Source: an uncultured Actinomycetes bacterium (GTDB lineage: Bacteria > Actinomycetota > UBA4738 > JACQTL01). From it: a DNA stretch of 64,000 bases. The stretch is from contig CAVYXG010000007.1 of assembly GCA_963772375.1 (NCBI GenBank), forward strand, positions 187,926-251,925, read 5' to 3'. The position numbers were made by a program, and so were the translations under genes. The notes beneath the pieces are model-generated. The model was not told the origin of the DNA and searched no databases. It saw only the letters and a program-made list of their open reading frames with translations. This document shows, in pieces, positions 4,859-38,953 of this stretch (positions within the stretch are counted from its first letter, which is position 1; every line of letters begins with the position of its first letter).

Positions 4859-5890
4859 TCAGCGGCCGGTGGCGAACAGCGTCTCAGCGATCTGCACGGA
4901 GTTGAGCGCGGCGCCCTTGCGGAGGTTGTCGCCGCTCGCGAACAGCAGCAGCCCGTCGTCGCGGCCGGCGGCCCGGCGGATCCGCCCGACCAGCACGTCG
5001 TCGATGCCGGCGGCGTCGAGCGGCGTGGGGTACTCGCCCCGGGACGGGTCGTCCACCACCCGCACCCCGGGCGAGCGCCGGAGCACCCCGCGCGCCTCGT
5101 CGGGGGTGGTCGCACGCGAGAAGGTCGCCGAGATGGCCACCGAGTGCCCCGTGACCACCGGCACGCGGACCACCGTGGCCTGGACCTCCAGGTTGGGCAG
5201 CTCGAGGATCTTCCGCGACTCGTGGAGCAGCTTGCGCTCCTCGCCGGTCCAGTCGTCCTCGTCCATGCCCCCCTGCAGGGCCAGCACGTTGAACGCGATC
5301 GTCCTGCCGTAGATCTCGCCGACCGGCAGCGCGTCGTGGTCGGGCGACACGAGCGACTCCACGTCACCGGCCATCTTGCCGACCTGGTCCGCCAGCTCGC
5401 GGATCCCCTTCATACCGCTGCCCGACACCGACTGGTATGAGGCCACCACCATCCTCCGCAGACCGATCGCGCGGTGGAGCGGCCCGATCGCCATCACCGT
5501 GGTGATCGCCGTGCAGTTCGGGTTGGCGATGATGCCGGCATGGCCGGTCAGTGCGTGGGCATTGACCTCGGGGACCACCAGCGGAACGTCCGGCGCCATC
5601 CGCCACGCGCTCGAGTTGTCGACGCACACGACGCCCATCGATGCGGCATCCCGGCAGATCGAGCGCGACACGGTGGCCCCCGCGGACAGCAGGGCGAGGT
5701 CGCACCCCTTCAGCGCGTCGAGCGACAGCTCGCGGACGGTGACCTCCTCGCCCCGGAACGGCACCCGGGTCCCGGCCGTCCTCGCGCTGGCCAGCGGCAC
5801 GAGCTCGTCGACGGGGAACGCCCGCTGTTCCAGCGTCCCGGTCATCTCCCGTCCGACGGCGCCGGTCGCGCCGATCACCGCGACCCGCAT
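4859..5890 (-). CDS. asd: aspartate-semialdehyde dehydrogenase
   Basis: ATG at 5890 ([16 protein letters not shown]...), active-site region IIANPNCTAI, SYQSVSGSG. The start overlaps the ask stop by ATGA. Confidence 0.95.
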   Translation of the reverse strand: MRVAVIGATGAVGREMTGTLEQRAFPVDELVPLASARTAGTRVPFRGEEVTVRELSLDALKGCDLALLSAGATVSRSICRDAASMGVVCVDNSSAWRMAPDVPLVVPEVNAHALTGHAGIIANPNCTAITTVMAIGPLHRAIGLRRMVVASYQSVSGSGMKGIRELADQVGKMAGDVESLVSPDHDALPVGEIYGRTIAFNVLALQGGMDEDDWTGEERKLLHESRKILELPNLEVQATVVRVPVVTGHSVAISATFSRATTPDEARGVLRRSPGVRVVDDPSRGEYPTPLDAAGIDDVLVGRIRRAAGRDDGLLLFASGDNLRKGAALNSVQIAETLFATGR

Positions 5891-6390
5891 CAGCGGTCCT
5901 CGCGCTTCTCGGCCTCGTTCCCGAGATCGAACTTCGCGTGCACCGCCCGTACGGCCCGATCGGCGTCGGCCGCGCGCACGACGCACGACACGCGGATCGA
6001 CGACGTCGAGATCATCTCGATGTTGATCCGCTCGTCGGCGAGCGCGGCGAACATGTCGGCCGCCACGCCGGGGTGGCTCTTCATGCCGGCGCCCACCAGC
6101 GAGACCTTCGCCACGCCGTCGTCCATCTCGAACCCGAACGCCCCCACCTCCTGGATCACGGCGTCCATGACGGCCTTCAGGCGCGGGAGGTCGGCCTTCG
6201 GCGCCGTGAACGACACGTCGGTACGCCCGTCGTGGGAGACGTTCTGCACGATCATGTCGATGTTCACGCCCTCGTCGGCCACCGCGCGGAAGATCGCCGC
6301 CGCCACGCCGGGCCGGTCGGGGACGTTCTGCAGCGTGACCTTCGCCTCGGTGTCGTCGCTCGCCACCCCCGAGATCAGGGCCTGTTCCAT
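5890..6390 (-). CDS. putative aspartate kinase beta subunit from an in-frame internal start
   Basis: GGAGGAAG lies 8-9 nt upstream of the in-frame ATG at 6390. The product starts [20 protein letters not shown], i.e. only the ACT domains. By analogy with Corynebacterium and Mycobacterium lysC. Confidence 0.45.
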
Positions 6391-7128
6391 GCGTTCGTCT
6401 TCCTCCGTCACCCACGTGCCGTCGTCGTCGGTGAACGACGAGCGCACGTGGAGCAGCACGTTGTTGCGCCGAGCGTACTCGACTGCCCTGCCCTGGAGGA
6501 CCTGCGCACCGGCGGCCGCGAGCTCGAGCATCTCCTCGAACGACACGGCGTGCAGCTGGCGCGCGTCCGGCTCCACGCGGGGGTCGGCGGTGAACACGCC
6601 CGGCACGTCGGTGTAGATCTCGCAGAACTCCGCATCCAGCGCGGCCGCGAGGGCAACGGCCGTCGTGTCGCTGCCGCCCCGGCCGAGCGTCGTCACGTCG
6701 GCGGTCGCGGAGACCCCCTGGAACCCGGCCACGATCACGATCGCGCCCTCGGCCACGGCCTGCAGGATCCGCCCGGGGCGGACGTCGATGATCTTGGCGT
6801 TGCCGTGGCGGGTGTCGGTGATGATCCCGGCCTGGGAGCCCGTGTACGAGGCCGCGCGGTGGCCGCGGTCGTTGATCGCGATGGCGAGGAGCGACATCGC
6901 GATGCGCTCGCCGGCCGTGAGCAGCATGTCGAGCTCGCGGGGGTTGGGGATCGGCGCGATGTCGTGCGCCATCTGCATGAGCTCGTCGGTGGAGTGGCCC
7001 ATGGCGGACACGACCACCACGACGTCGTAGCCGGACTCGCGGGCCTTGACGACGCGATCGGCGACGGCCCGGATGCGCCCGGCGTCGCCGACGGACGTCC
7101 CGCCGTACTTCTGCACGATCACCGGCAT
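5890..7128 (-). CDS. lysC: aspartate kinase (alpha subunit reading frame)
   Basis: [26 protein letters not shown]...[14 protein letters not shown], two C-terminal ACT domains. Classic ask-asd operon order. Confidence 0.95.
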
Positions 7129-7211
7129 GCCGACGAGCCTCCTGGAGGGGCCGGAGCGTTCAGGGTAACAGCCGGTCCGCGCCGTCCCGGGGAGGCCCTA
7201 CAGTCGCCGGT

Positions 7212-7649
7212 GTGCGACCGATGTGGGTGTGCCCCGCCTGCGGCAGGAGCTTCGCGAACCGCAACCAGACGCACACGTGCCGGGCCCTGGGATCGGTCGA
7301 GGACCACCTGCGGGGCAAGCCCGCCGAGGTGGTGGCGACCTACCGCGCCCTGGAGGCGGCCGTGCTCGCGCTCGGCCCGGTCGAGGTCCTCGCCGAGCGG
7401 TCCCGCATTGCGTTTCATGTGCGGCTGAGCTTTGCCGGGTGCGTCGTTCGGAGGCGGTGGGTGGATGCGACGGTGCTCCTCGCCCGGCGGCTGGAGAGCC
7501 CCCGGTTCGCGAAGGTCGTGACCTATTCGCCGCGGAACCACGGCCTCACGTTCCGGCTGACCTCGCCGGGCGAGGTCGATGACGAGGTGGCGCGGTGGCT
7601 GGCCGAGGCGTACGAGGTCGGCCTCCAGCGCCACCTCGGCCACCGATAG
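7212..7649 (+). CDS. DUF5655-like small protein with N-terminal CxxC..HxC zinc-ribbon-like motif
   Basis: 145-aa ORF MWVCPACGRSFANRNQTHTC...IAFHVRLSFAG...FRLTSPGEVDDEVARWLAEAY. Family assignment from memory. Confidence 0.55.
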   Translation: MRPMWVCPACGRSFANRNQTHTCRALGSVEDHLRGKPAEVVATYRALEAAVLALGPVEVLAERSRIAFHVRLSFAGCVVRRRWVDATVLLARRLESPRFAKVVTYSPRNHGLTFRLTSPGEVDDEVARWLAEAYEVGLQRHLGHR

Positions 7650-7659
7650 CGTCCCGCGT

Positions 7660-8325
7660 TCAGGCCCGGACCCGGGCCCTGCGGATCGGGCGGTCGGCGT
7701 CGAACACCAGACGCCTCGCCAACGAGCGGATCCAGCCGTCCTCGCGGGCCACCGGGCCCACCCCGACCAGGCGGCGGGCGAGGATCACCCCGAGCACCCC
7801 GGCCCCCATCGCGACCATCCCGCGGGGCCGCCCGGTGGCCGCGGCGACCACCGGCACGGCGGTGAAGCCAGCCGTGCTTCCTGCGCCGGTGTGCCCGAGC
7901 GCCTTGCCGGCCAGCAGGACCGACCCTGCGACGACCATCTCCAGCGGAAGGTTGACGAGGGTCACGCCGGCCGCGGCCGCCAGGCCGCGGCCGGCGAAGG
8001 GCCGGGCGAACGGCGGGAAGGCGTGGCCGGCCACGACGGCCACGCCGGTCGCGGCCCGCCACCCGGTCGTGAGCCCCGCCCGTCGCGCGGCGGCCGCCAC
8101 CACCACTGCCTTGGCAACGTCCCCGCCTATCGCGACGGCGGTGGCGGCGGGGCCGGCGTGCTCGGCGAGCAGGAGGTGCGCGTCGGCGACGGAGGAGTCT
8201 GCGGACGCCAGTTCGACGACTGCCCGCGCGCCCGTCGCCCGCGCGACCAGGTAGGCCGCCGGGATCGAGCCGACGAGATAGCCACCGACGACCCAGAGGG
8301 CGCCTCGGGGCCGGCCGGCGCTCAT
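7660..8325 (-). CDS. PlsY-family (glycerol-3-phosphate acyltransferase-like) membrane protein, divergent
   Basis: ATG at 8325 overlaps the degV stop. YLVGSIPAAYLVA and VAGHAFPPF..FAGRGLAAAAG resemble PlsY motifs. The GSGNxGATN motif is not recognisable. Confidence 0.55.
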   Translation of the reverse strand: MSAGRPRGALWVVGGYLVGSIPAAYLVARATGARAVVELASADSSVADAHLLLAEHAGPAATAVAIGGDVAKAVVVAAAARRAGLTTGWRAATGVAVVAGHAFPPFARPFAGRGLAAAAGVTLVNLPLEMVVAGSVLLAGKALGHTGAGSTAGFTAVPVVAAATGRPRGMVAMGAGVLGVILARRLVGVGPVAREDGWIRSLARRLVFDADRPIRRARVRA

Positions 8326-26366: not shown

Positions 26367-27670
26367 GATGAGGCTCCTCCGGGCGGCATGGCGCTGCCCG
26401 CCCGAGGGAAGGAGGAGCAGTTGGACGTCCTCATCGAACGGTGCGCGGGCCTCGACGTCCACAAGGACACCGTGATGGCCTGCGTCAGGTACCCGGGGCC
26501 TGGCCGGGAACGCCTCCAGGAGGTCCACGAGTTCGGCACCACCACGCACGCGCTGCTCGCTCTCGCCGACTGGCTCGCGTCCTACGGCGTCACGGTGGTG
26601 GGGATGGAGTCCACCGGGGTGTACTGGAAGCCGGTGTACTACGTGCTGGAGGATGCCTTCGACACCCAGGTGCTGAACGCCAGGCACCTCAAGGCCGTCC
26701 CGGGGCGCAAGACCGACGTCCGCGACTCGGAGTGGATCGCCCAGCTCGTGGAGCACGGTCTGGTCCGACCGTCGTTCGTGCCGCCGAAGCCCATCCGGGA
26801 GCTCCGCAACCTCACCCGGTACCGCAAGGCTCAGATCGAGGAGCGGACCCGGGAGGCCCAGCGCCTGGACAAGATCCTGCAGGACGCCGGGGTCAAGCTG
26901 TCATCGGTGGCCTCGGACATCCTGGGGGTGTCCGGCCGGGCCATGCTCACCGCGCTGGTCGAGGGGACCCGCGACCCCGAGGTGCTGGCCGAGCTCGCCA
27001 GAGGACAGCTCCGCAAGAAGATCCCCGCCCTGAAGGAGGCCCTCACGGGGCGGTTCGGGTCACACCACGCCCTCATCGTGGGGACCATCCTGTCCAAGCT
27101 CGAGTTCCTGGAGGAGGTCATCGCTCACCTCTCGGCGGAGATCGAGGAGGCGATCGCCCCTTTCGCCCTCGCCGTTGAGGTGCTCCGGACGATCCCCGGG
27201 GTGGACCGGCGAACGGCCGAGACCATGGTGGCCGAGATTGGGGTGGACATGGACCAGTTCGGCTCGGCCGGGAGGTTGGCCTCGTGGGCCGGGATGTGTC
27301 CGGGCAACGACGAGTCGGCCGGCAAACACCGGTCGGGGAAGACCCGCAAGGGCTCGAAGTGGCTCCGGACCGCCCTGGTGGAGGCGGCAAAGGGCGCGGC
27401 CCGATCGAAGGGCACGTACCTGGCTGCCCAGCACGCCCGGTTGAGGGGCCGTCGCGGTTCACGCAAGGCCACCATCGCCGTGGGCCACTCGATCCTGGTC
27501 GCCGCCTACCACATGCTCGACAAAGGAGTTCCCTACCAGGACCTTGGCGCCGACCACTTCGTCCGTCACGACCCGAAGCTCCACACCGCGCGGCTCGTCC
27601 GGCAGTTGCAGGCGATCGGCTACCGCGTCACCCTCGAGGAGGTGGAGGCCGCGTAGCCAACCGAGGGCAT
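26205..27670 (+). mobile_element. IS110-family insertion sequence (boundaries approximate)
   Basis: Single transposase ORF. The left limit is where the esterase similarity ends. The right limit is where the delta-60 remnant on the opposite strand ends. No inverted repeats are expected for IS110. Confidence 0.6.
26388..27656 (+). CDS. IS110 family transposase
   Basis: LDVLIERCAGLDVHKDTVMACV...VVGMESTGVYWKPVYYVLED (DEDD N-domain) and C-terminal PGVDRRTAETMVAEIG...SAGKHRSGKTRKGSKWLRTALVEAA. Confidence 0.95.
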   Translation: MALPARGKEEQLDVLIERCAGLDVHKDTVMACVRYPGPGRERLQEVHEFGTTTHALLALADWLASYGVTVVGMESTGVYWKPVYYVLEDAFDTQVLNARHLKAVPGRKTDVRDSEWIAQLVEHGLVRPSFVPPKPIRELRNLTRYRKAQIEERTREAQRLDKILQDAGVKLSSVASDILGVSGRAMLTALVEGTRDPEVLAELARGQLRKKIPALKEALTGRFGSHHALIVGTILSKLEFLEEVIAHLSAEIEEAIAPFALAVEVLRTIPGVDRRTAETMVAEIGVDMDQFGSAGRLASWAGMCPGNDESAGKHRSGKTRKGSKWLRTALVEAAKGAARSKGTYLAAQHARLRGRRGSRKATIAVGHSILVAAYHMLDKGVPYQDLGADHFVRHDPKLHTARLVRQLQAIGYRVTLEEVEAA

Positions 27671-28485: not shown

Positions 28486-28875
28486 ATGTTGGGGTCGGCC
28501 AGCACGCACGCAATGATTGCCGTCAGTGATCTCGACACCGCTAGGGAGTTCTACAGCGGCAAGCTCGGGCTCACGGCAAGGATTGATCGGCCGGGGCTCA
28601 TTCAGTACGAGACTGCAGCTCGGACATGGTTCTTGGTCTACCAGTCTGGGTTTGCCGGGACTGCGAAGAGCACCTCCATGAGGTTCGTCGTCGAGGATGT
28701 TCGAGCCACGGTCGCAGAACTCCGTGGTCGTGGAGTCGTGTTCGAAGAGTATGACCTACCCGGCGTGAAGACCGTCGACGGCATCGCCGAGCACGAAAGC
28801 GGGGTACTCGGTGCGTGGTTCAAGGATCCTGATGGCAACATCCTCGGGATCGGCCAAAGCCCGTCACCGACCTGA
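28486..28875 (+). CDS. VOC (glyoxalase/bleomycin-resistance/dioxygenase) family protein
   Basis: ATG at 28486 follows GGAGGAG. MLGSASTHAMIAVSDLDTAREFYSGKLGL...GAWFKDPDGNILGI. Confidence 0.8.
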   Translation: MLGSASTHAMIAVSDLDTAREFYSGKLGLTARIDRPGLIQYETAARTWFLVYQSGFAGTAKSTSMRFVVEDVRATVAELRGRGVVFEEYDLPGVKTVDGIAEHESGVLGAWFKDPDGNILGIGQSPSPT

Positions 28876-29288
28876 GCCCTGAGAACGCTCGCAGGGGCCG
28901 GTCAAAGGCTGCGAGCTCGGCCACTGGCTCACGCCGACCCAGCGCCGGACGATCACGGTGCGGTGTTGCGGTGGTAGCGGAGCGGATCAGGACGAGATTC
29001 GGAGTGAACGAGCTCGAGGATATTGAGCCGCAGTCCCTGAAGACGGCGGCCCGGGCCACGGCCATGGCGGCCTTCTTGGAGGAGCCCGCCGCTCCCTTGC
29101 ATCCGGTGTCGGGGAGTTCGGTGATCATGGTCCGGAAGGGGTGGCCTGAAGCCGAGACCACCAGGTGGACGTCGTGGTCGGACTCGATGGTGGCCTTCAT
29201 GAGGTCGACCTTGATCTTGTAGGTCCGGACCTCAGGCGAGTCCAAGTACCGGGGAGTGTCCGAGCTCACCATCTGGGGGGCGTCCAAG
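28820..29288 (-). pseudogene. 3' fragment of a secreted-protein gene split by the transposon
   Basis: Reads ...DAPQMVSSDTPRYLDSPEVRTYKIKVDLMKATIESDHDVHLVVSASGHPFRTMITELPDTGCKGAAGSSKKAAMAVARAAVF. It joins in frame with 32346..32558 once the element is removed. The true 3' end is uncertain. Confidence 0.7.
29284..29288. repeat. target-site duplication CCAAG (left copy)
   Basis: CCAAG lies immediately outside TGTTGCGCGAC at 29289 and is identical to 32346..32350. Confidence 0.8.
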
Positions 29289-29343
29289 TGTTGCGCGACA
29301 CGCTCGATGATCGCGTTGGCGACAGCCCTAGTGATCATGAACC
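29289..29343. repeat. terminal inverted repeat (ATPase-proximal end)
   Basis: See the element entry. Starts with TGT. Confidence 0.7.
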
Positions 29344-29364
29344 TGCCCGCGTCGGCGGTTGGCT

Positions 29365-30181
29365 TCACTCTGATGTCACCTCCGTGACCGCGGCCTGGGC
29401 CGAGGACTGATCGACGATGCCTTTTGGACTCGGCGAAGGCGGCGACCAGGGCCTGCACGGCGAGGTTGTTCACCGCGCGGGGGATGCCGCGAGCGGTCTG
29501 GTGGACGAGAGCCACGGCGTCATCGGAGAACAGCGGATCGGATCTGCCCGCCAGCTTGAGGTGATGGGCTAGGTACCCGGCGGTCTCGGAGAGGTCCATG
29601 CCGTCCAGGTGGTAGCGCAGGGCGACCCGCTGGTCCAGCGCGGCGAAGGCCCCCAGCCGCAGTCGCCGGCGCAGTGTGGGCTGCCCCAGCAGGACGAGGG
29701 CCAGGGGTGACCGGGAGTCCATGTCGGCGTTGGTCAGCATCCTGAGCTCCTCGAGCTGCTCGGCCGACAGCAGGTGGGCCTCGTCCACTGCCACCACCAC
29801 CCGCTTGTGCCGCTCGGCGTGCTCGGTGGCCAGGAGGTCCTGGGTCTGCGGGATGAGGAAGGCGTTGTAGAACCGCGGCGTCCCACCGAGGGCGGAGACG
29901 ATCTCGGTGTAGATGCCGCGGGTCCCCACCGCGGGGTTCGACAGGTAGATGACCGTGTGCCGCGAGGCGTCGAGGGCGTCGAGGGCGGCCCGGGCGGCCA
30001 CGGTCTTGCCCGCCCCGACCTCCCCGGTGACGACCCCGATGGTGGACTCCCCGACCAGCCACCGGATGCGGGCGACCGCCTCGGCGTGGGCCGTGGATGC
30101 GAACAGGGCCTGCGGCGCGATGTCCTTGCCGAACGGCATGCGGGTGAACCCGTAGTGGGCCTGGAGGCGCTCGATGGTCAT
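29365..30181 (-). CDS. TniB/ExeA-like AAA+ ATPase (transposition helper), with a +1 frameshift in an A4 run (plus-strand T4 at 29422-29425)
   Basis: ATG at 30181 overlaps the transposase stop (ATGA). Walker A is TGEVGAGKT, Walker B is VVAVDEAHLL. Removing one A restores ...ESKGIVDQSSAQAAVTEVTSE* with a stop at 29365-29367. As sequenced, the ORF runs on to 28820. Confidence 0.75.
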
Positions 30182-31497
30182 GGCGTGTGGTCTCCTTCCT
30201 CGGTCGCGGTTTCCTCGAGCGAGGCGTAGGTGATGCGTCGGCGGGTCGCCTCGTCGTGCTCGGCCTCGACGAGGCCCAGGTAGTCGATGCCGGTGCGCGG
30301 CGGGGCCGGGGGGTCCTGCAAACGGGCCCGGGGATGGACGTGGCGCCCCACGACGTGCGCCATGGCCTTGCCCATGGACCGGCCCTGGTAGCGGACCTCG
30401 ATGTCGGTGAGATCGAACGGGTCGAACACGAGCTCCACCGTCCGCCCGGCGAGCGCCGGGTCGCACTCATAGCGGTTGCCGTACAGGGAGAACGTCGCCG
30501 TCTTCGCGACCCGGCGGTGCTCCGACCACAAGAAGGCCTCTCGGAGCTCGGCTGGGGTGGGCAGGCGAGGAGGGCCGGGACGCAGGAACCGCTCGAGGGG
30601 CGGCTCGTTCGTCTCGGCGTGGATCCTCAGGTGGTAGACCTGCTCCACCCACGCGGCGAACAGCCGGTTCAGCTCCTCCAGCGAGCCCACGCCGCGGTGG
30701 GTCACCTCCACCAGGAACTGCCCGCGCACGGTGCGGAACACCCGCTCGATCTTGCCCCGCCCGGCCGGCTCCCCCGGAGCGGAGTGCACCAGGCGGATGC
30801 CGAGGACCGCGCAGGCCCGTAGGAGCCACCCGGAGGAGAACGCCGATCCATTGTCGACGTAGCAGGCCTTCGGTACGCCCCGGGCCGCGAGCGCCGTGCG
30901 CAGCGCCGCCTCCAGCCGCAGGGTGTCCTCCGCCTCGCCCCACCGGTAGCCCACCAGCGCCCGGGAGTGGTCGTCGATGAAGGCGAACAGGTAGGTCTTG
31001 CGACCGGCCACGACGGGGCCGTGCAGCGCGTCGCCGGTCCACAGCTCGTTAGGGGCCGAGGCCTCGAAGCGCCCGTAGATGCGGGGAGCACCGGCCTTCG
31101 GGCGAAGATCCCGCCGGACGAAGTGCCGTTGCAGGGTTCGTTCGCTGGGGGCCGGGTGGCCGGAGCGCACCATGATCTCCCGGACCTGGGCGGCGGTTCG
31201 GGCGGGAACCTCCCGCTTCAGGGCCTCCGCGATCTGCAGCACCTCGGCGGGCGTCCGGGGCTGGGATGACCGGGGCGCCGGGTACAGGGCCTCGAACCCT
31301 CCATCCCTCCAGACCCGGACCCACCGCCGGAGTGTGGGGGCCGACACCCGGACGCGCTCCCCATCCGGGCCGATGTGGTCGCGCGATGCCAGGAAGTTGA
31401 GCATCTGCCCCCGCTGCCGGGGAGCGAGCGCAGGGTCGGCCGCCTCCCGGATGAGGGAGTACCGAAACAGCGCCACGTCTCGTCGTCGATCGTCCAT
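30178..31497 (-). CDS. DDE (rve) transposase with Mu-transposase-like C-terminal domain
   Basis: N-terminal HTH; WTGDALH...LFAFIDDHSRALVGY...CYVDNGSAFSS...PGEPAGRGKIERVF (D, D, E triad region); C-terminal LYGNRYE...VELVFDPFD. Confidence 0.9.
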   Translation of the reverse strand: MDDRRRDVALFRYSLIREAADPALAPRQRGQMLNFLASRDHIGPDGERVRVSAPTLRRWVRVWRDGGFEALYPAPRSSQPRTPAEVLQIAEALKREVPARTAAQVREIMVRSGHPAPSERTLQRHFVRRDLRPKAGAPRIYGRFEASAPNELWTGDALHGPVVAGRKTYLFAFIDDHSRALVGYRWGEAEDTLRLEAALRTALAARGVPKACYVDNGSAFSSGWLLRACAVLGIRLVHSAPGEPAGRGKIERVFRTVRGQFLVEVTHRGVGSLEELNRLFAAWVEQVYHLRIHAETNEPPLERFLRPGPPRLPTPAELREAFLWSEHRRVAKTATFSLYGNRYECDPALAGRTVELVFDPFDLTDIEVRYQGRSMGKAMAHVVGRHVHPRARLQDPPAPPRTGIDYLGLVEAEHDEATRRRITYASLEETATEEGDHTP

Positions 31498-31558
31498 GAG
31501 CCCTCCCGTTGGCCGCGTCGGGCAGTCCTTTTGGGGAAGCGGTGGCCATCGTTCCGGC

Positions 31559-32143
31559 TCACCACGGCGCCGGGAAGGGCGAGGTGGTGTTGGCGAGCAG
31601 CAGTCCGGCCGTGGCCCCCGAGCAGAACGCCCACACCGGGGAGGGACCGAGCCTCGTCACCGCCGCCCGGTGGGCCACCGCGATGGCCTCCACCGCGTCG
31701 GCCGTGGGCGACGCTCGCGGCGCGATGTCACCGAGGGAGGGGTCCAACCGGTAGGCCAGGGCGGTGAAGTGGGCCCGGATGGCCTCGGCCCGGCGGGCGA
31801 AGCGGCGGAGCCACTCCCGCACGGTGGTAGGGGGTCGGCCGTAGCGGGCGGCGATCCGGCGGTGGCCCCACCCCCGGGCCCCCAGGACGAGGGCCCGGCC
31901 GATCGCTTGGGCCACGTCCATCCGTCGAAGGAGCGTGCTCACCGGGAGCAGGACGTGGGTCCTCGAGCAGGCCCGGCACCGCGACCGCCGGGGGCGCACC
32001 GTCGTGGTGCCGGCCAGGCGCCGGAGCGTGCGCGCTCGGGCGAACCCCCACGGCCGGAGCTCGCCGGAGCAGGATGGGCACTCGAGCTCGCCGCCGCGCA
32101 GCCGGGCGTCGACGCCGCGGATGTGGGGCTCTACCATCAACAC
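31559..32143 (-). CDS. DUF6431-like zinc-ribbon + HTH protein (first gene of the transposon)
   Basis: ECPSCSGELRPWGFARARTLR...RRSRCRACSRTHVLLP...GHRRIAARYGRPPTTVREWLRRF. This gene type recurrently precedes such transposases in actinobacteria (from memory). Confidence 0.65.
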   Translation of the reverse strand: MLMVEPHIRGVDARLRGGELECPSCSGELRPWGFARARTLRRLAGTTTVRPRRSRCRACSRTHVLLPVSTLLRRMDVAQAIGRALVLGARGWGHRRIAARYGRPPTTVREWLRRFARRAEAIRAHFTALAYRLDPSLGDIAPRASPTADAVEAIAVAHRAAVTRLGPSPVWAFCSGATAGLLLANTTSPFPAPW

Positions 32144-32284
32144 CGGTGCGGGTACCTCCGCACTCTGCGTCGGGGGGCCCTTCCGGGTTCTTGCCGAAGA
32201 AGGCGGGAGGGCCCCTGTCGCTTCCTACTGACGCTTCAGGATCGGGCAAGCCGAGCGGGCCGCCAACCTCAAGGAGTCATCCCA

Positions 32285-32345
32285 TGTGATCACCGTGGGT
32301 GTCGTCTCAACCCATGTTCCTGATCAATGGAAGAGTCGTTCTACA
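32285..32345. repeat. terminal inverted repeat (HTH-gene-proximal end)
   Basis: The reverse complement starts TGTAGAACGAC. See the element entry. Confidence 0.7.
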
Positions 32346-32350
32346 CCAAG
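32346..32350. repeat. target-site duplication CCAAG (right copy)
   Basis: Immediately outside the element end at 32345. Confidence 0.8.
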
Positions 32351-32558
32351 CCGCGGAGGAACCCCACGCTCGAGTTGATGGGGTGGTAGTTCACTCGCTT
32401 GGCCCGCCGGTCGGACAGGGTCTTCACCGGCCACCGGAACACACCGCATGCGACGGCCTTTGCCTCGGGCGCCGTGTCCGGAAAGAGGGGTGCGAGGCTG
32501 CCACCGATGCGAGCGCAGGCGCTGCGGCGGCGAAGATAGGGATGAATCTGCGGGACAT
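32346..32558 (-). pseudogene. 5' fragment of the secreted-protein gene split by the transposon (also frameshifted near 32487-32490)
   Basis: ATG at 32558 follows GAAGAAGGG and gives a signal peptide MSRRFIPIFAAAAPALASVAAS. After a C4 run (plus-strand G4) the family-like sequence LFPDTAPEAKAVACGVFRWPVKTLSDRRAKRVNYHPINSSVGFLRGL continues in another frame. Confidence 0.65.
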
Positions 32559-32787
32559 GGCGACCCTTCTTCGGTACGGAACACGCCGCAGTGTGGGTCA
32601 TGCGGATGCTCGGATCAAAAGGCTGATGAGGACGCTCGATACCGTCGTCGATCGCCGGTTGATCTGGTCTTCTCCTCCCCCGTGGAGTACAACCTGCCGG
32701 AGATCCGGGCGACCAGCTTCTTGGCCGTGGTGGTGACCAATGGCGGTCGGTGGCCCGGCATGGCGCCCGGGGGGAGGGAGGAGCGCG

Positions 32788-34005
32788 ATGGACGGGCCGA
32801 CCAGGCGGTTGATGGCGTTGCTCGGAGCGCTGGCGGTGGTCGCAGGGGTGGCCGGGCCCGCGAACGCCTCGGCGGGCTCGCTGGACCCGACGTTCGCGGG
32901 CGACGGGATCCGCAACTCGATCCCTCGCTTTGGGGCCGGAGCGGACCTGCTGGTCCAGTGGAACGACCGCATTCTGGTTGCGGACACCCGGTTTGACGTG
33001 GCGCGGCTGCGAGTGAACGGCCGGGTGGACGATACTTGGGGCTCGGGTGGCGTCGCCAAAAGCCCGCTCGGGCGCGTCAGCTCGGAGGCGGCGTCGGAGA
33101 TGGTCCGCGATCGTGACGGACGGGTCGTGGTCGTCGGCACGGTCTCGGACGAGTTCGTCGTGGTCCGGTTCACGCTCCACGGGCGGCCCGACACCACGTT
33201 CTCGGGCGACGGCGCGTTGCGGATGTCCTGCGGGCCCCGTCCATTCTGTGGCCCGCCGGGGGTGGCGATCCAGCCGGACGGCAGGATCGTGATCGCCACG
33301 TGGGAGGGGGGGTTCGTCCTCCAGCGACTGAACACCGACGGGACTCCGGACTCGACGTTCGGCCGGAACGGCGTCGTGAGCATCCGCGAGGGACAGTGCT
33401 GCCCGATCGTGCGTTCGTCCGTGCTGGTGGACCGCGACGGCACGATCCTTGCGGCGGGCGGTGGCGAGCTGGCGCGGTTCACCGCGCACGGGCGTCTGGT
33501 CAGCACGTTCGGGAACCACGGGATCGCGAGGCTGTCGAGCGACCTGAACCCCCTCGAGGTCTCCGGGCTCAACATCGACGAGGCTGGCCGGATCCTGGTG
33601 GTGGGCGACGACGACGACTGGTTCGTCGAGCGCTTCAGGCCTGCCGGGCGGCTGGACCGTTCGTTCGGAATGAACGGCGTCCGTCGCGTGAACCTGCTGG
33701 GGCAGGACGCCACCGACGGCATGGCCGTCCAGAGCGGCGGGCGGATCATCGTGGCCGGGGGGACGTACGACCAGTCGGAGTCGGGGCAGTTCCACCCGGC
33801 GCTGGTCCGGCTCCTTCCTTCGGGCGGCATCGACCGGTCGTTCGGGAGCGCCGGGAAGATCGTGATGGGTCGCTTCGTCGGGTTCTGCGACGGCGTCGAC
33901 ATCCAGGCGGTGAGCCACCCGCGCATCGTGATCGCGGGCGGTCAAGGCGGATACGCAGGCGGCGGCTCGTCCCCCTTCGCCGCTGCCGCGTTCCGCACGA
34001 CCTGA
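32788..34005 (+). CDS. secreted delta-60-repeat protein
   Basis: ATG at 32788 follows GGGAGGGAGGAG. Signal MDGPTRRLMALLGALAVVAGVAGPANA. Repeats of L.PDG..D.SFG.DG......AV.QPDGRIVVAG type. Confidence 0.8.
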   Translation: MDGPTRRLMALLGALAVVAGVAGPANASAGSLDPTFAGDGIRNSIPRFGAGADLLVQWNDRILVADTRFDVARLRVNGRVDDTWGSGGVAKSPLGRVSSEAASEMVRDRDGRVVVVGTVSDEFVVVRFTLHGRPDTTFSGDGALRMSCGPRPFCGPPGVAIQPDGRIVIATWEGGFVLQRLNTDGTPDSTFGRNGVVSIREGQCCPIVRSSVLVDRDGTILAAGGGELARFTAHGRLVSTFGNHGIARLSSDLNPLEVSGLNIDEAGRILVVGDDDDWFVERFRPAGRLDRSFGMNGVRRVNLLGQDATDGMAVQSGGRIIVAGGTYDQSESGQFHPALVRLLPSGGIDRSFGSAGKIVMGRFVGFCDGVDIQAVSHPRIVIAGGQGGYAGGGSSPFAAAAFRTT

Positions 34006-34255
34006 ACGGGCCCTTCCAGCCGAGCCGGCCGACCCACGAAGCACGCGGGCCCTCTTGTCACTGCGGCTTCTAGAGAGTCTCCATGGAGCCAGGCGGCGGC
34101 TACACGCGGCTCGGGGGAGACCGCATAGCTACAAGCTGTTCCGATCAGAACGGTCGTCCGAAGAGCACCCTTGCGAGGCAGTGCTCGAAGGCTGGGCCAA
34201 GCCCCGCCGGCTGTCACAAGACGCCGGCATTGGGCAGAGAAGACGTGTGGAGACT

Positions 34256-34828
34256 ATGGATGGCTACGGGTCCGACGATGAGGTGCTGATCGACTCCATC
34301 GAGCATCCCGAGCTTTTCACGGTCCTCTACGACCGTCACGCGCGAATGATCCTGACGTACTTCGCCCGACGGACCCTCGACGCGGACACCGCATCCGAAC
34401 TCACGGCGGAGACGTTCGCTGAGGCCTTTACATCGCGACATCGCTTTCGGAGGCGCTCTACTCCAGCGGCCGCCTGGCTCGCCACGATCGCGCGGCGGCA
34501 ACTCGCCCATTACTGGAGGCAAATGCGGGTGGCCGATCGGGCACGCCGGCGACTCGGCGTCCCACCGATCGCCCTGGAGGACGAGGACCTCGACCGGATC
34601 GAGGCGCTCATCGACTTCGAAGCCATCGGGCGAGCGGTGGCCGCTGCGTTTTCCGAACTCACCCCCGACCAACGTGCTGCCCTCACCCTGCGGGTGATCG
34701 ACGGTCGCTCGTACGCCGAAGCGGCCGCCATGCTCTCGTGCTCTGAGCAGGTCGTTCGAGCCCGGGTCAGCCGTGGCCTTCGACGCCTTGCGGCCAGGCT
34801 GGACCTCGAAGGAGGCACAAGTGCCTGA
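34256..34828 (+). CDS. ECF-type RNA polymerase sigma factor
   Basis: Region 2 (LFTVLYDRHARMILTYF..ASELTAETFAEAF) and region 4 HTH (LTPDQRAALTLRVIDGRSYAEAAAMLSCSEQVVRARVSRGLRRL). Confidence 0.85.
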   Translation: MDGYGSDDEVLIDSIEHPELFTVLYDRHARMILTYFARRTLDADTASELTAETFAEAFTSRHRFRRRSTPAAAWLATIARRQLAHYWRQMRVADRARRRLGVPPIALEDEDLDRIEALIDFEAIGRAVAAAFSELTPDQRAALTLRVIDGRSYAEAAAMLSCSEQVVRARVSRGLRRLAARLDLEGGTSA

Positions 34829-36586: not shown

Positions 36587-38071
36587 ATGAAGTCTTTCGA
36601 GGAGATCATGAACATGTTGGAGGCTTACGACCTGACGGGCTCGTACCGCGCCGCTGCGGAGCTCGCCGGCGTCGACCATCACACCGTCGAACGCTATGTG
36701 GCGATGCGCGACGGGGGGCTGGCGCCCTCGGCCGGGATCGACCGCCCGATGCTCATCGACGCGTTCCTGACGAAGATCGAGGAGTGGGTGGACCGCTCCC
36801 ACGGCCGCATCCGGGCCGACCGTTGTCACGACAAGCTCTTGGCCCTCGGCTACCAGGGCTCGGAGCGGACGACGCGTCGGGCCGTGGCCGAGGCCAAGCA
36901 GCGGTGGCGGGACGGGCGTCTGCGGGTGTACCGCCCGTGGATCCCCGAGCCCGGGATGTGGTTCCAGTGGGACTAGGGGACGGGACCTGAGGTCCCCGAG
37001 GGACCGACGCAGCTGTGGTGCGCGTGGCTCGCGTGGTCGCGGTACCGCGTGGTGTTCCCGATCCTCGACAAGACCCTGCCGACGGTCGTGGCCTCGGTGG
37101 ACCGGACGGTGCGCGCGTTCGGGGGCGTCCCCACCTACGGGCTGACCGACAATGAGAAGACCGTCACGACCGGCCACATCGCCATGATCCCCGTCCGCCA
37201 CCCGGTGATCGTCGCCGCGGCACGACACTACGGGCTGACCATCGCGACGTGCGTGCCGGCGGACCCCGAGTCCAAGGGCGGATCGGAGGCCACCGTGCGC
37301 ATCGCCAAGGCCGACCTCGTCCCCACCGAGGCGAACCTGCTGCCCGCCTACGGCTCCTTCGCCGAGCTCGGGGCGGCATGCGAGGCGTTCTGCGAGCGGG
37401 TCAACGCCCGGCCCCACCGGGCCACGGGCCGACCTCCGGTCGAGCTGCTCGCCGAGGAACGCCGGCACCTGCACCCGGTGCCCGCCGAGCCGTACACCAC
37501 TGCGTTCGGCGAGACCCGGACCGTGGCGTCGAACGCGACGGTGTTGTTCCACAGCGTCCTGTACTCGGTGCCGTACTCGCTCATCGGCCGAAGGGTGTGG
37601 GTCCGCACCGAGGGCGACGAGGTCGTCGTGGTCGCCGTCGATGCGTCGCAAGGAGCACGCGAGGTCGCCCGCCACCGCCGCTCCACCCCGGGCCGGCCCA
37701 TGATCGACGACCGCCACTACCCCGAACGCTCGGCCGACCCGCTCGGGAGGACCCCGCGGCCTCGCACGCCCGAGGAGCAGGCCTTCCTCGCTCTCGGCGA
37801 CGGTGCCACCCAATGGCTCATCGAGGCGGCGTCGGTGGGGGCCTCCCGCATCCGGCACAAGATGGCCGAGGCTCTCGAGCTCGCCAAGCTGTACGGGCCC
37901 GCCGAGGTGGACCGCGCCCTGGGGGTGGCCGCGACGTGCGGACGGTTCTCAGACGGCGCCCTCGCCGCGATCCTGTCTCACGGTGGCGATGGGCAGGAGC
38001 CACGGTCGCAGGCCACCGACGCCCACAGCCTGCAGCGGGGCACGGGAGCGTGGGAGGGGTTCGGACGATGA
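36587..38071 (+). pseudogene. istA: IS21 transposase IstA with an in-frame TAG at 36974-36976
   Basis: ORFs 36587..36976 and 37049..38071 share a frame. Together they read ...PGMWFQWD*GTGPEVPEGPTQLWCAWLAWSRYRVVFP..., colinear with IstA, where the stop replaces an aromatic residue. Confidence 0.85.
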
Positions 38072-38953
38072 CCACCACCATGGACCCCTCGCCGCTCGAC
38101 GAAGTCGACGCCCATCTGCGGCGCCTGCGGCTGCCGTATCTCCGTCAGGCGGCCCGGGACGTCCTGGCCACGGCCAAGGCCCAGCGGTGGGACCCGGCCG
38201 AAGCCCTGCGGGTCCTGCTGGCAGAGGAGGTGGCCGGCCGGGACCGGGCCACGGTGGCCAACCACCGGCGGAGCGCGGGGTTCCCCTCCGGCAAGACGTT
38301 CGAGGCGTGGGACGAGCGAGCCTCCTCGATCCCGCTGCCGACGCAGCGCGCCCTGCGCACCCTCGAGTGGGTCGAGCGTCGGGAGAACCTCGCGCTGTGC
38401 GGTCCCTCGGGAACGGGCAAGTCGCACTTCCTGGAGGCGCTCGGCGGCTCCGCCGTGGAGCGGGGGATGCGGGTCAGCTGGTTCTCCCTGGAGACCCTCG
38501 CAGCCATCATCCGCCGCCACCGCGTCGACGACTCCGTCGCCAAGGCCGTCGCCCGGATCTGCCGGGCCGACCTCATCGTGGTGGACGACATCGGGATGCT
38601 CAGCGGAGGCAGCGGAGGCAGCGGAGGCAGCGGAGGCAGCGGAGGCAGCGGAGGCAGCGGAGGCAGCGGAGGCAGCGGAGGCAGCGGAGGCAGCGGAGGC
38701 AGCGGAGGCAGCGGAGGCAGCGGAGGCAGCGGAGGCGTTCTACCGCGTCGTGGACGCCGCGTACGAGCGGCGCTCGGTGGCAGTGTCGTCGAACCTGCAC
38801 CCCGCCGGCTTCGACGAGCTCATGCCCAAGACGCTGGCGACCGCCACGGTCGACCGACTCCTGCACCACGCCCACGCCGTGGTGACCGAGGGCGAGAAGA
38901 GCTTCCGCCTGGCAGAGGCGACGTCAGGCAAGGGGGTGGTGCCCCTGGGCTGA
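38068..38953 (+). pseudogene. istB: IS21 helper ATPase IstB, disrupted by a 9-bp repeat expansion and frame change
   Basis: ATG at 38068 overlaps the istA stop. Walker A is GPSGTGKSH, Walker B is LIVVDDIGML, followed by (SGG)15. The conserved C-terminus AEAFYRVVDAAYERRSVAVSSNLHPAGFDE...GKGVVPLG is in another frame and ends at 38953. Confidence 0.85.
38601..38735. repeat. perfect tandem repeat, 15 x CAGCGGAGG
   Basis: Counted directly from the sequence. No variant units. Confidence 0.95.

Follow-up and report, generated by a model that had tools for sequence, protein, structure and literature searches.

A three-gene DDE transposon with an ExeA-type ATPase gene, present in near-identical copies, in an uncultured actinobacterium

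A transposon within a gene for a secreted-type protein

The window analysed here, a 64,000-nucleotide stretch of a contig from an uncultured Actinomycetes bacterium, contains a transposon of 3,057 bp at positions 29289–32345, with its genes on the minus strand. These are orf1 (31559–32143), coding for a 194-residue DUF6431-like protein; a gene for a 439-residue DDE transposase (30178–31497); and a gene for an ExeA-type AAA+ ATPase (29365–30181), which is frameshifted in this copy. Read directly from the window, the two ends are TGTTGCGCGACACGCTCGATGATC (plus strand, starting at 29289) and TGTAGAACGACTCTTCCATTGATC (reverse complement, starting at 32345), and the element has the termini TGTAGAAC...GCGCAACA. 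The pentamer CCAAG (CTTGG in gene orientation) abuts both ends, at 29284–29288 on the ATPase-proximal side and at 32346–32350 on the orf1-proximal side, as a target-site duplication. An earlier sequence-only reading of the window had proposed both terminal sequences, the 3,057 bp size, the flanking CCAAG copies, and the restoration of a reading frame upon excision, and all of these were borne out. Deletion of 29289–32350 in silico yields an unbroken minus-strand frame, ...NYHPINSSVGFLRGLDAPQMVSSDTPRYLDSPEVRTYKIKV..., in which ...SSVGFLRGL is joined to DAPQMVSS.... The ungapped match between the two ends, previously counted at 14 of 24 positions, is corrected to 15 of 24 (the chance of 15 or more is ~7e-4 at the observed base composition). 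A repeat search listed 25 of 360 inverted-repeat pairs, and the pair formed by the two termini did not appear in that list. By itself this repeat is too weak to define the element; the placement of the ends rests on comparison between copies.

The interrupted gene provides a second view of the junction. A search with the restored open reading frame (ORF) identified nine homologues (P0001–P0009), all hypothetical proteins with signal-peptide-like N-termini, for which no Pfam or NCBIfam model was matched; conserved motifs of this small family include CGVWRWPVKTLSD, DHDVHLVV, and HGQTG.APNGIELHPVL. P0001 runs through the junction colinearly as ...INSSVGFLRGLDAPQIVSSDTPRYL..., within the wider stretch ...INSSVGFLRGLDAPQIVSSDTPRYLNSPEVRTYKIKVDL..., and a tblastn alignment of P0002 to the excised sequence covers 139 residues without gaps at 67% identity and spans the junction. 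A failure of homologues to align across the junction had been named beforehand as grounds for abandoning the insertion; both proteins align colinearly and without a gap. The 5’ fragment of the host gene (32346–32558, minus strand) has a signal-peptide-like start, MSRRFIPIFAAAAPALASVAAS, in a frame different from that of the mature part: residues 1–21 of P0002 align in frame -1 and residues 26–164 in frame -3. In the 3’ fragment (28820–29288, minus strand), homology to relatives stops near 29003, after ...CGSISSSSFT, and the conserved C-terminal motif GVGF.D..HGQ.G..PNGIELHPVL was not found in any frame. Thus, the description of a secreted-type gene stands, whereas that of a simple split does not, as the signal peptide is out of frame and the C-terminal motif is gone. 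The host gene bears lesions beyond the insertion and was already damaged when it was hit.

Further copies of the element

The sequence-only reading had also proposed a search for more copies of the ends, and several were found. First, an exact look-up of the transposase in public metagenomes identified a second complete copy of 3,056 bp (L001, positions 5153–8208; ERZ25039533 contig_25990), which differs from the window copy by a single extra base in the latter. The termini of the two copies are the same, and the second is likewise flanked by a 5 bp duplication, but one of different sequence, CTCGG, at the place equivalent to CCAAG. Their flanks are unrelated save for the likeness of CTCGG to CTTGG. 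Second, a copy on contig_36396 (L006) lacks the outermost 5 bp of the orf1-proximal end, where the contig breaks, and ends with ...GCGCAACA, followed by unrelated DNA. It differs from the window copy and L001 at seven positions (three substitutions and four single-base indels), and similarity of the window to both copies ends at the termini. Third, a Logan contig from an independent assembly (L007, run ERR11718635) begins exactly at TGTAGAAC, the orf1-proximal terminus. Fourth, an intact 271-residue ATPase (P0130) and the 453-residue fusion protein of the window copy (P0400) are both on record from one contig of 277,674 bp, equal in length to the contig that carries the window's orf1. This contig therefore probably holds a further intact copy outside the window; a look-up of the fusion protein aimed at the window's own contig returned no record, and this further copy is deduced, not seen. 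Copies, homologues, and the restored frame all point to the insertion of a transposon whose boundaries are exact and whose target was duplicated over 5 bp. The copy number is at least four, and since the copies are nearly identical, the element appears to have been active recently.

Several other searches gave negative results. A 24-nucleotide end had no exact match in a scan of Joint Genome Institute metagenomes, and the element seems to be absent from that collection. Abutted ends, as circle junctions or tandem dimers, gave chance matches only among all retrieved loci; an Rfam search at gathering scores over 26–40 kb of the window returned no structured RNAs, and promoter and terminator scans of the element found nothing. 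As a separate observation, contig_36396 also carries a different transposase gene with rve and Mu-transpos_C domains (L090, 6701–7472) beside a phage-type integrase gene, 3.7 kb from the copy described above.

Paired repeats at the ends

Each end of the element contains two inward-facing CGAC-N8-TGATC sites. At the ATPase-proximal end (29289–29338, plus strand), which starts TGTTG, the sites lie at 29296–29312 and 29320–29336; at the orf1-proximal end (32286–32345, minus strand), which starts TGTAG and coincides with the start of the Logan contig, they lie at 32322–32338 and 32288–32304. The sequence-only reading had written a longer subterminal motif, a search for which came back empty, its spacing differing between the two ends; the shorter pattern was used instead. 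The window has six occurrences of CGAC-N8-TGATC where 1.07 would be expected, and four of them are the end pairs; L001 has four where 0.17 would be expected, every one at an end. These counts are partly circular because the pattern was derived from the same sites. Related elements likewise have a terminal and a subterminal site at each end, with sequences that vary between elements and match within an element. In this co-variation the paired repeats behave as transposase-binding sites would, and the termini TGTAG.../...CAACA are of the TG...CA type with several putative binding repeats per end.

The three encoded proteins

A profile scan agrees with the three-protein content proposed beforehand (an rve transposase with a Mu-type C-terminal domain, an AAA+ protein, and a DUF6431-like helix-turn-helix (HTH) protein), with DUF6431 falling just below its cut-off. 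The transposase, whose protein sequence is identical in the window and in L001, combines HTH_28/HTH_32, rve (71.7 bits), and a Mu-transpos_C barrel (PF09299; 34.3 bits against a cut-off of 21.7, residues 321–372). Its catalytic triad of D156, D215, and E251 is conserved without exception in 22 relatives with identities down to 26%, including the transposase of Tn6049. Among curated insertion sequence (IS) models, IS481 (NF033577) is the best match, with 164.1 bits and an E-value of 4.8e-48 over residues 47–304, short of the cut-off of 224; IS3, ISNCY_2, and IS21 (NF033546, 52.3 bits against a cut-off of 160) score lower. Retroviral integrases, TnsB, and the IS21-family IstA of IS5376 are matched about equally weakly in a sequence search of the PDB; residues 203–375 align to a TnsB chain with an E-value of 4.9e-6, and the weak match to IstA (PDB 8q4d) has an E-value of 1.4e-4.

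The product of orf1 has a four-cysteine zinc ribbon followed by an HTH, as judged from Pfam, alignment, and an AlphaFold2 model. It matches HTH_23 with 27.9 bits and DUF6431 (PF20020) with 25.0 bits against a gathering cut-off of 26.6, and many homologues at 52–68% identity have a precomputed PF20020 match. Cysteines C22, C25, C56, and C59 are invariant across 42 homologues. The model (predicted local distance difference test score, pLDDT, 90.3) comprises a beta-rich ribbon at about residues 20–67 and then helices; in a Foldseek search of the PDB its matches were all local, involving a zinc-ribbon module and HTH proteins, with no whole-protein match and no TniQ among the 50 best. Within the literature collection searched, DUF6431 is mentioned in just two papers, and in the title or abstract of neither.

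The ATPase start codon (30181–30179) overlaps the transposase stop codon (30180–30178) as ATGA, the overlap anticipated by the sequence-only reading. That reading had further labelled the protein TniB/ExeA-like, and here the two halves of the label fare differently. The ExeA half stands, as the protein matches AAA_22 with 86.6 bits and resembles the ExeA-type model TIGR03015, under its cut-off; the TniB half is true only loosely, as no Pfam TniB or IstB (PF01695) match was found even at E<=10. Sequence comparison with MuB gives an E-value of 0.09. The best structural matches of the ATPase model (pLDDT 68, with a better core) are Cdc6/Orc1 proteins (Cdc6, E-value 2.8e-6) and MuB (8xvc, E-value 2.9e-6, 22% identity), with TnsC (7mbw) further down.

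A frameshift in the ATPase gene

The element had been called intact-looking, but in this copy the ATPase gene carries a +1 frameshift. The T-run at 29422–29425 of the plus strand reads AAAA in the gene and AAA in both other copies covering the position. The extra A shifts the frame after K253 and replaces the last 18 residues; the lost tail contains D257 and E267, which are invariant in 35 homologues, and I255 and A264, which are nearly invariant. The normal stop at 29365–29367 is bypassed and the shifted frame enters the host gene, by coincidence in that gene's own frame, running on to 28820 as a 453-residue ATPase–host fusion ORF (28820–30181).

Whether the extra A is real bears on the status of this copy. 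The difference is one of AAAA versus AAA, the contig_N-style names and the occurrence of the closest relatives in Microflora Danica metagenome-assembled genomes (MAGs) suggest long-read assembly, and frame breaks are also present in two nearby genes, at the N-terminus of the host gene and in an IS21 IstA gene. It is therefore quite possible, if the less favoured reading, that the base is a homopolymer assembly error, that the element is fully intact, and that the earlier description was right. However, the indels by which L006 departs from L001, three in number, are confined to the non-coding ~9% of the element, which random error would not be expected to produce; no coding indel is present in any other copy; and frame breaks occur only in mobile-element genes or in genes already disrupted, where real decay is expected. 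We favour a real frameshift, with some reserve, because the placement of the L006 indels is the pattern of selected variation. Tracking of G+C at third codon positions across the window was too noisy to give a rate of assembly frameshifts. The window copy is probably not autonomous, but it could be moved in trans by intact copies from the same assembly.

Distribution and variation of the family

Relatives of the transposase at ~60% identity are found on plasmids of Mycobacterium, Streptomyces, Kitasatospora, Rhodococcus, and Pseudonocardia. On these plasmids the Prokaryotic Genome Annotation Pipeline (PGAP) names the gene ‘DDE-type integrase/transposase/recombinase’ and the one that follows it ‘ExeA family protein’ or ‘AAA family ATPase’; in a Streptomyces example a ‘DUF6431 domain-containing protein’ gene precedes the transposase gene. 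In data with one genome per species, 118 candidate stretches encode relatives, the best of them 62–66% identical and most of them from MAGs of Solirubrobacterales and other Actinomycetota, and a full HMMER scan with the transposase yields 752 clusters (50% identity) at E<=1e-30. The gene trio is conserved: an orf1 homologue lies upstream of the transposase gene in 72 of the 75 related loci with enough flank, and an ATPase gene lies downstream in all 65 of 65. Comparison of copies within genomes gives family ends of TGTTGA...TCAACA. Many relatives are ~4.5 kb long with a fourth gene, for a 427-residue protein, downstream of the ATPase gene (for example L013, 6201–7484; Solirubrobacterales MAGs). 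Its product has no Pfam match and could be either a passenger or a fourth transposition component.

The 5 bp duplication had been presented as a hallmark of Mu/Tn7/Tn552-type transposition. Both complete copies of this element have 5 bp, but as a fixed property this length is not supported: duplications among relatives vary, and Tn552 itself makes 6 bp duplications (PMC3276174). Exact flanking duplications are 5 bp at 12 loci, 6 bp at six, and 8 bp at three. Even identical copies differ, with 8 bp at L020 versus 5 bp at L079 and 8 bp at L038 versus 5 bp at L041; a length of 5 bp is therefore the mode and not a fixed rule. About one-third of relatives with recognisable ends have no flanking duplication. 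In two further relatives (L084 and L068), the flanking repeats of 8–9 bp are alike except for the length of a run of G: AGCGGGGG(G) and CATCGGG(G)T. Homopolymer miscalls in the long-read MAGs are the probable cause, and single-base indels in such data need caution at the level of reads.

Genomic surroundings

A G+C content of 70% and the relatives of the element in Solirubrobacterales and other Actinomycetota point to an actinobacterial host. The insertion lies in a 12 kb stretch rich in mobile elements. At a distance of 1.6 kb is an apparently intact gene for an IS110-family (RNA-guided) transposase (26388–27656, plus strand; NF033542, 269.6 bits, cut-off 140), and a degenerate IS21-family element (36587–38900, plus strand) lies 4 kb from the transposon. 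In this remnant IstA is split over two frames, with 36587–36976 matching profile positions 5–121 and 37049–38071 matching positions 156–294, and IstB is broken directly after its Walker B motif (DDIGML). Inside IstB, 38601–38736 consists of the 9 bp unit CAGCGGAGG repeated 15.1 times in perfect tandem (100% matches), encoding (GGS)n in frame; the array is either a true expansion or an assembly artefact. The insertion is adjoined by genes for a delta-60-repeat protein (32740–34005, plus strand; TIGR02608, 145.6 bits) and an extracytoplasmic function-type sigma factor (34055–34828, plus strand).

Interpretation and proposed mechanism

The element is most likely one of several copies of a recently active DDE transposon with three genes, whose insertion into a secreted-type protein gene that was already damaged duplicated 5 bp of target (CTTGG in gene orientation). 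For this genome the event is a routine mobile-element interruption of a gene already damaged. A scheme for its movement can be drawn by analogy with DDE transposases and their AAA+ partners, such as those of IS21 (PMC11208146). The 439-residue transposase, with its RNase-H/rve fold and D156-D215-E251 triad, would bind the paired CGAC-N8-TGATC sites, synapse the ends, and expose the 3’-OH at the terminal ...ACA-3’. This 3’-OH would attack the target, and both ends would be joined with a stagger of 5 bp, or of 6 or 8 bp as well in relatives. The coupled ExeA-type ATPase may act like MuB, TnsC, or IstB, with its ATP-bound form binding target DNA and delivering or activating the transposase through the Mu-type beta-barrel or the C-terminal tail of the latter; it may also discourage insertion beside an existing copy. 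The orf1 product could be a third DNA-binding component, at a guess a regulator or an accessory factor that binds ends or targets. The element would work without a TnsA-like second nuclease and without a resolvase.

The resemblance of the ATPase to MuB and TnsC by fold, together with its coupling to and co-inheritance with the transposase, supports its assignment to the transposition machinery. Several points weigh against this interpretation. The ATPase fits no TniB, IstB, or TnsC sequence model, and its likeness to MuB is structural and modest, coming from a model with a pLDDT of 68. The role suggested for orf1 is a guess, and its model is without a whole-protein structural neighbour in the PDB. 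The third of relatives that lack duplications could have a replicative or recombinational history rather than one of simple insertion, and they hint at some such history in the family. The frameshift may be an error, since it comes down to the length of a homopolymer and the metagenome was probably assembled from long reads. Finally, members of the family are known as sequences alone.

The claim that this type of element is poorly characterised agrees with the literature, which is sparse: searches on TniA, TniB, Tn552, ExeA, and Mu-type elements found no paper on this family. The present analysis supplies exact ends, paired repeats, and a spectrum of duplication lengths for a family whose members receive no more than generic names from annotation pipelines. 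A transposon of 3 kb with three proteins, assisted by an AAA+ protein, would be a compact model for the control of DDE transposases by helper ATPases. In addition, ExeA-like ATPases of Actinomycetota that are annotated as ‘type II secretory pathway’ proteins probably serve transposition when found in this context, a useful correction for annotation.

Comparison with known systems

IS481 elements have a single transposase gene and a length of ~1 kb. The catalytic core and N-terminal HTH of the present transposase find their best curated match in this family (164 bits, E-value 4.8e-48), the ends likewise start TGT, PGAP calls the Tn6049 transposase an ‘IS481 family transposase’, and variable duplication length is reportedly typical of IS481-like elements in ISfinder. 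The element might on this basis be an IS481-family insertion sequence in which orf1 and the ATPase gene are two passengers with no part in transposition. We consider this improbable. The score is under the 224-bit cut-off, a Mu-type barrel outside the IS481 models is present, and the element carries three conserved genes in ~3 kb, including one for a dedicated ATPase with a MuB-like fold. The translational coupling of the ATPase gene, its presence at 65 of 65 loci, and that of orf1 at 72 of 75 are more constant than is normal for passengers across transposases 53–66% identical, and Tn6049, a distant element with a transposase 32% identical, has its genes in a similar order.

With Mu A/B, TnsB/TnsC of Tn7, and TniA/TniB of Tn5053/Tn402, the element shares a DDE transposase with a Mu-type barrel and an adjoining AAA+ gene, several putative transposase sites per end, TG...CA termini, a 5 bp duplication as far as this element itself is concerned, and an ATPase model like MuB and TnsC. 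Tn7 makes 5 bp duplications. Unlike these systems, similarity of the transposase by sequence is no better than to retroviral integrases, relatives make duplications of 5, 6, and 8 bp, and no target specificity is evident; no TniB, TniQ, TnsA, or resolvase was found among the three genes (Pfam; TniB, TniQ, and IstB at E<=10). That the element is a minimal Tn5053/Tn7-type transposon with orf1 as a TniQ/TnsD-equivalent target selector is more doubtful still: the zinc ribbon and HTH of orf1, reportedly shared with TniQ-family proteins, the three genes, the 5 bp duplications of both complete copies, and the likeness of CTTGG to CTCGG favour it, but orf1 has no TniQ match by Pfam (E<=10) or among the 50 best by Foldseek, TnsA and a resolvase are absent, the insertions of this element and its relatives are in unrelated genes with no consensus among duplications beyond G+C richness, and relatives vary in duplication length, unlike the 5 bp repeats of Tn402-type elements, of which one example is given in PMC4739549.

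Tn552, with its p480 transposase and p271 ATP-binding protein, is similar by description only, as a pair of DDE transposase and ATP-binding protein in Gram-positive hosts. Its ~120 bp inverted repeats, 6 bp duplications, resolvase (bin), and preference for res sites (PMC3276174) are not seen in the window element. IS21 (IstA/IstB) is likewise compact; a gene for a helper AAA+ protein lies behind its transposase gene and is coupled to it, its ends hold repeated sites, and its transposase beta-barrel interacts with and stimulates the dedicated AAA+ ATPase (PMC11208146). Unlike in IS21, the transposase scores far below the 160-bit cut-off, the ATPase is not IstB/DnaC-like, with no match to the IstB models NF038214 and PF01695, and orf1 is additional. 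By sequence models or gene content, the element thus appears to fall outside the IS481, IS21, and Mu/Tn7/Tn5053 groups. It has the general features of AAA+-assisted DDE transposons: an intact triad, a co-inherited adjoining ATPase gene, and TG...CA ends with multiple repeats.

The nearest named relative, a distant one known from annotation alone, is Tn6049 of Cupriavidus metallidurans CH34. Tn6049 is 3.5 kb long, is present in 12 copies in CH34, and always carries the ‘gspA’ ATPase gene (PMC2864759); in pHS87a it has TGTGCATAAGCA ends and a 4 bp repeat (PMC4739549), and in pMOL30 (L088, 1774–5290) we find it flanked by a 6 bp duplication, CTATCG. Its genes encode a cysteine-rich 181-residue protein, a 479-residue transposase, a 277-residue AAA_22 ATPase, and a 90-residue protein. 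The two elements have a similar architecture, being compact and multi-copy, with TGT...ACA termini, short duplications (4 and 6 bp in Tn6049), and the order small cysteine-rich protein, IS481-like rve transposase, ExeA/GspA-like ATPase, with a 4 bp overlap in Tn6049. The Tn6049 transposase is 32% identical over 235 residues (E-value 2e-25) and its ATPase 25% over 262 residues (E-value 2e-13). Unlike the window element, Tn6049 is proteobacterial, has a fourth gene, for the 90-residue protein, and encodes a transposase with no Pfam Mu-transpos_C match. No similarity could be detected between its small protein and that of orf1, nor does the former match DUF6431 or HTH_23, and shared ancestry of this component is not supported. 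Tentatively, the actinobacterial trio elements and Tn6049 may form an unrecognised and abundant AAA+-dependent family between IS481/IS3 and Mu/Tn7/IS21, in which an IS481-like core would have acquired a Mu-type barrel along with an ExeA-type ATPase and, as a third and obligatory component, a zinc-ribbon/HTH protein, and would join its targets with a flexible stagger of 5, 6, or 8 bp. If this is true, the flexible stagger implies a geometry of target capture unlike that of Mu or Tn7.

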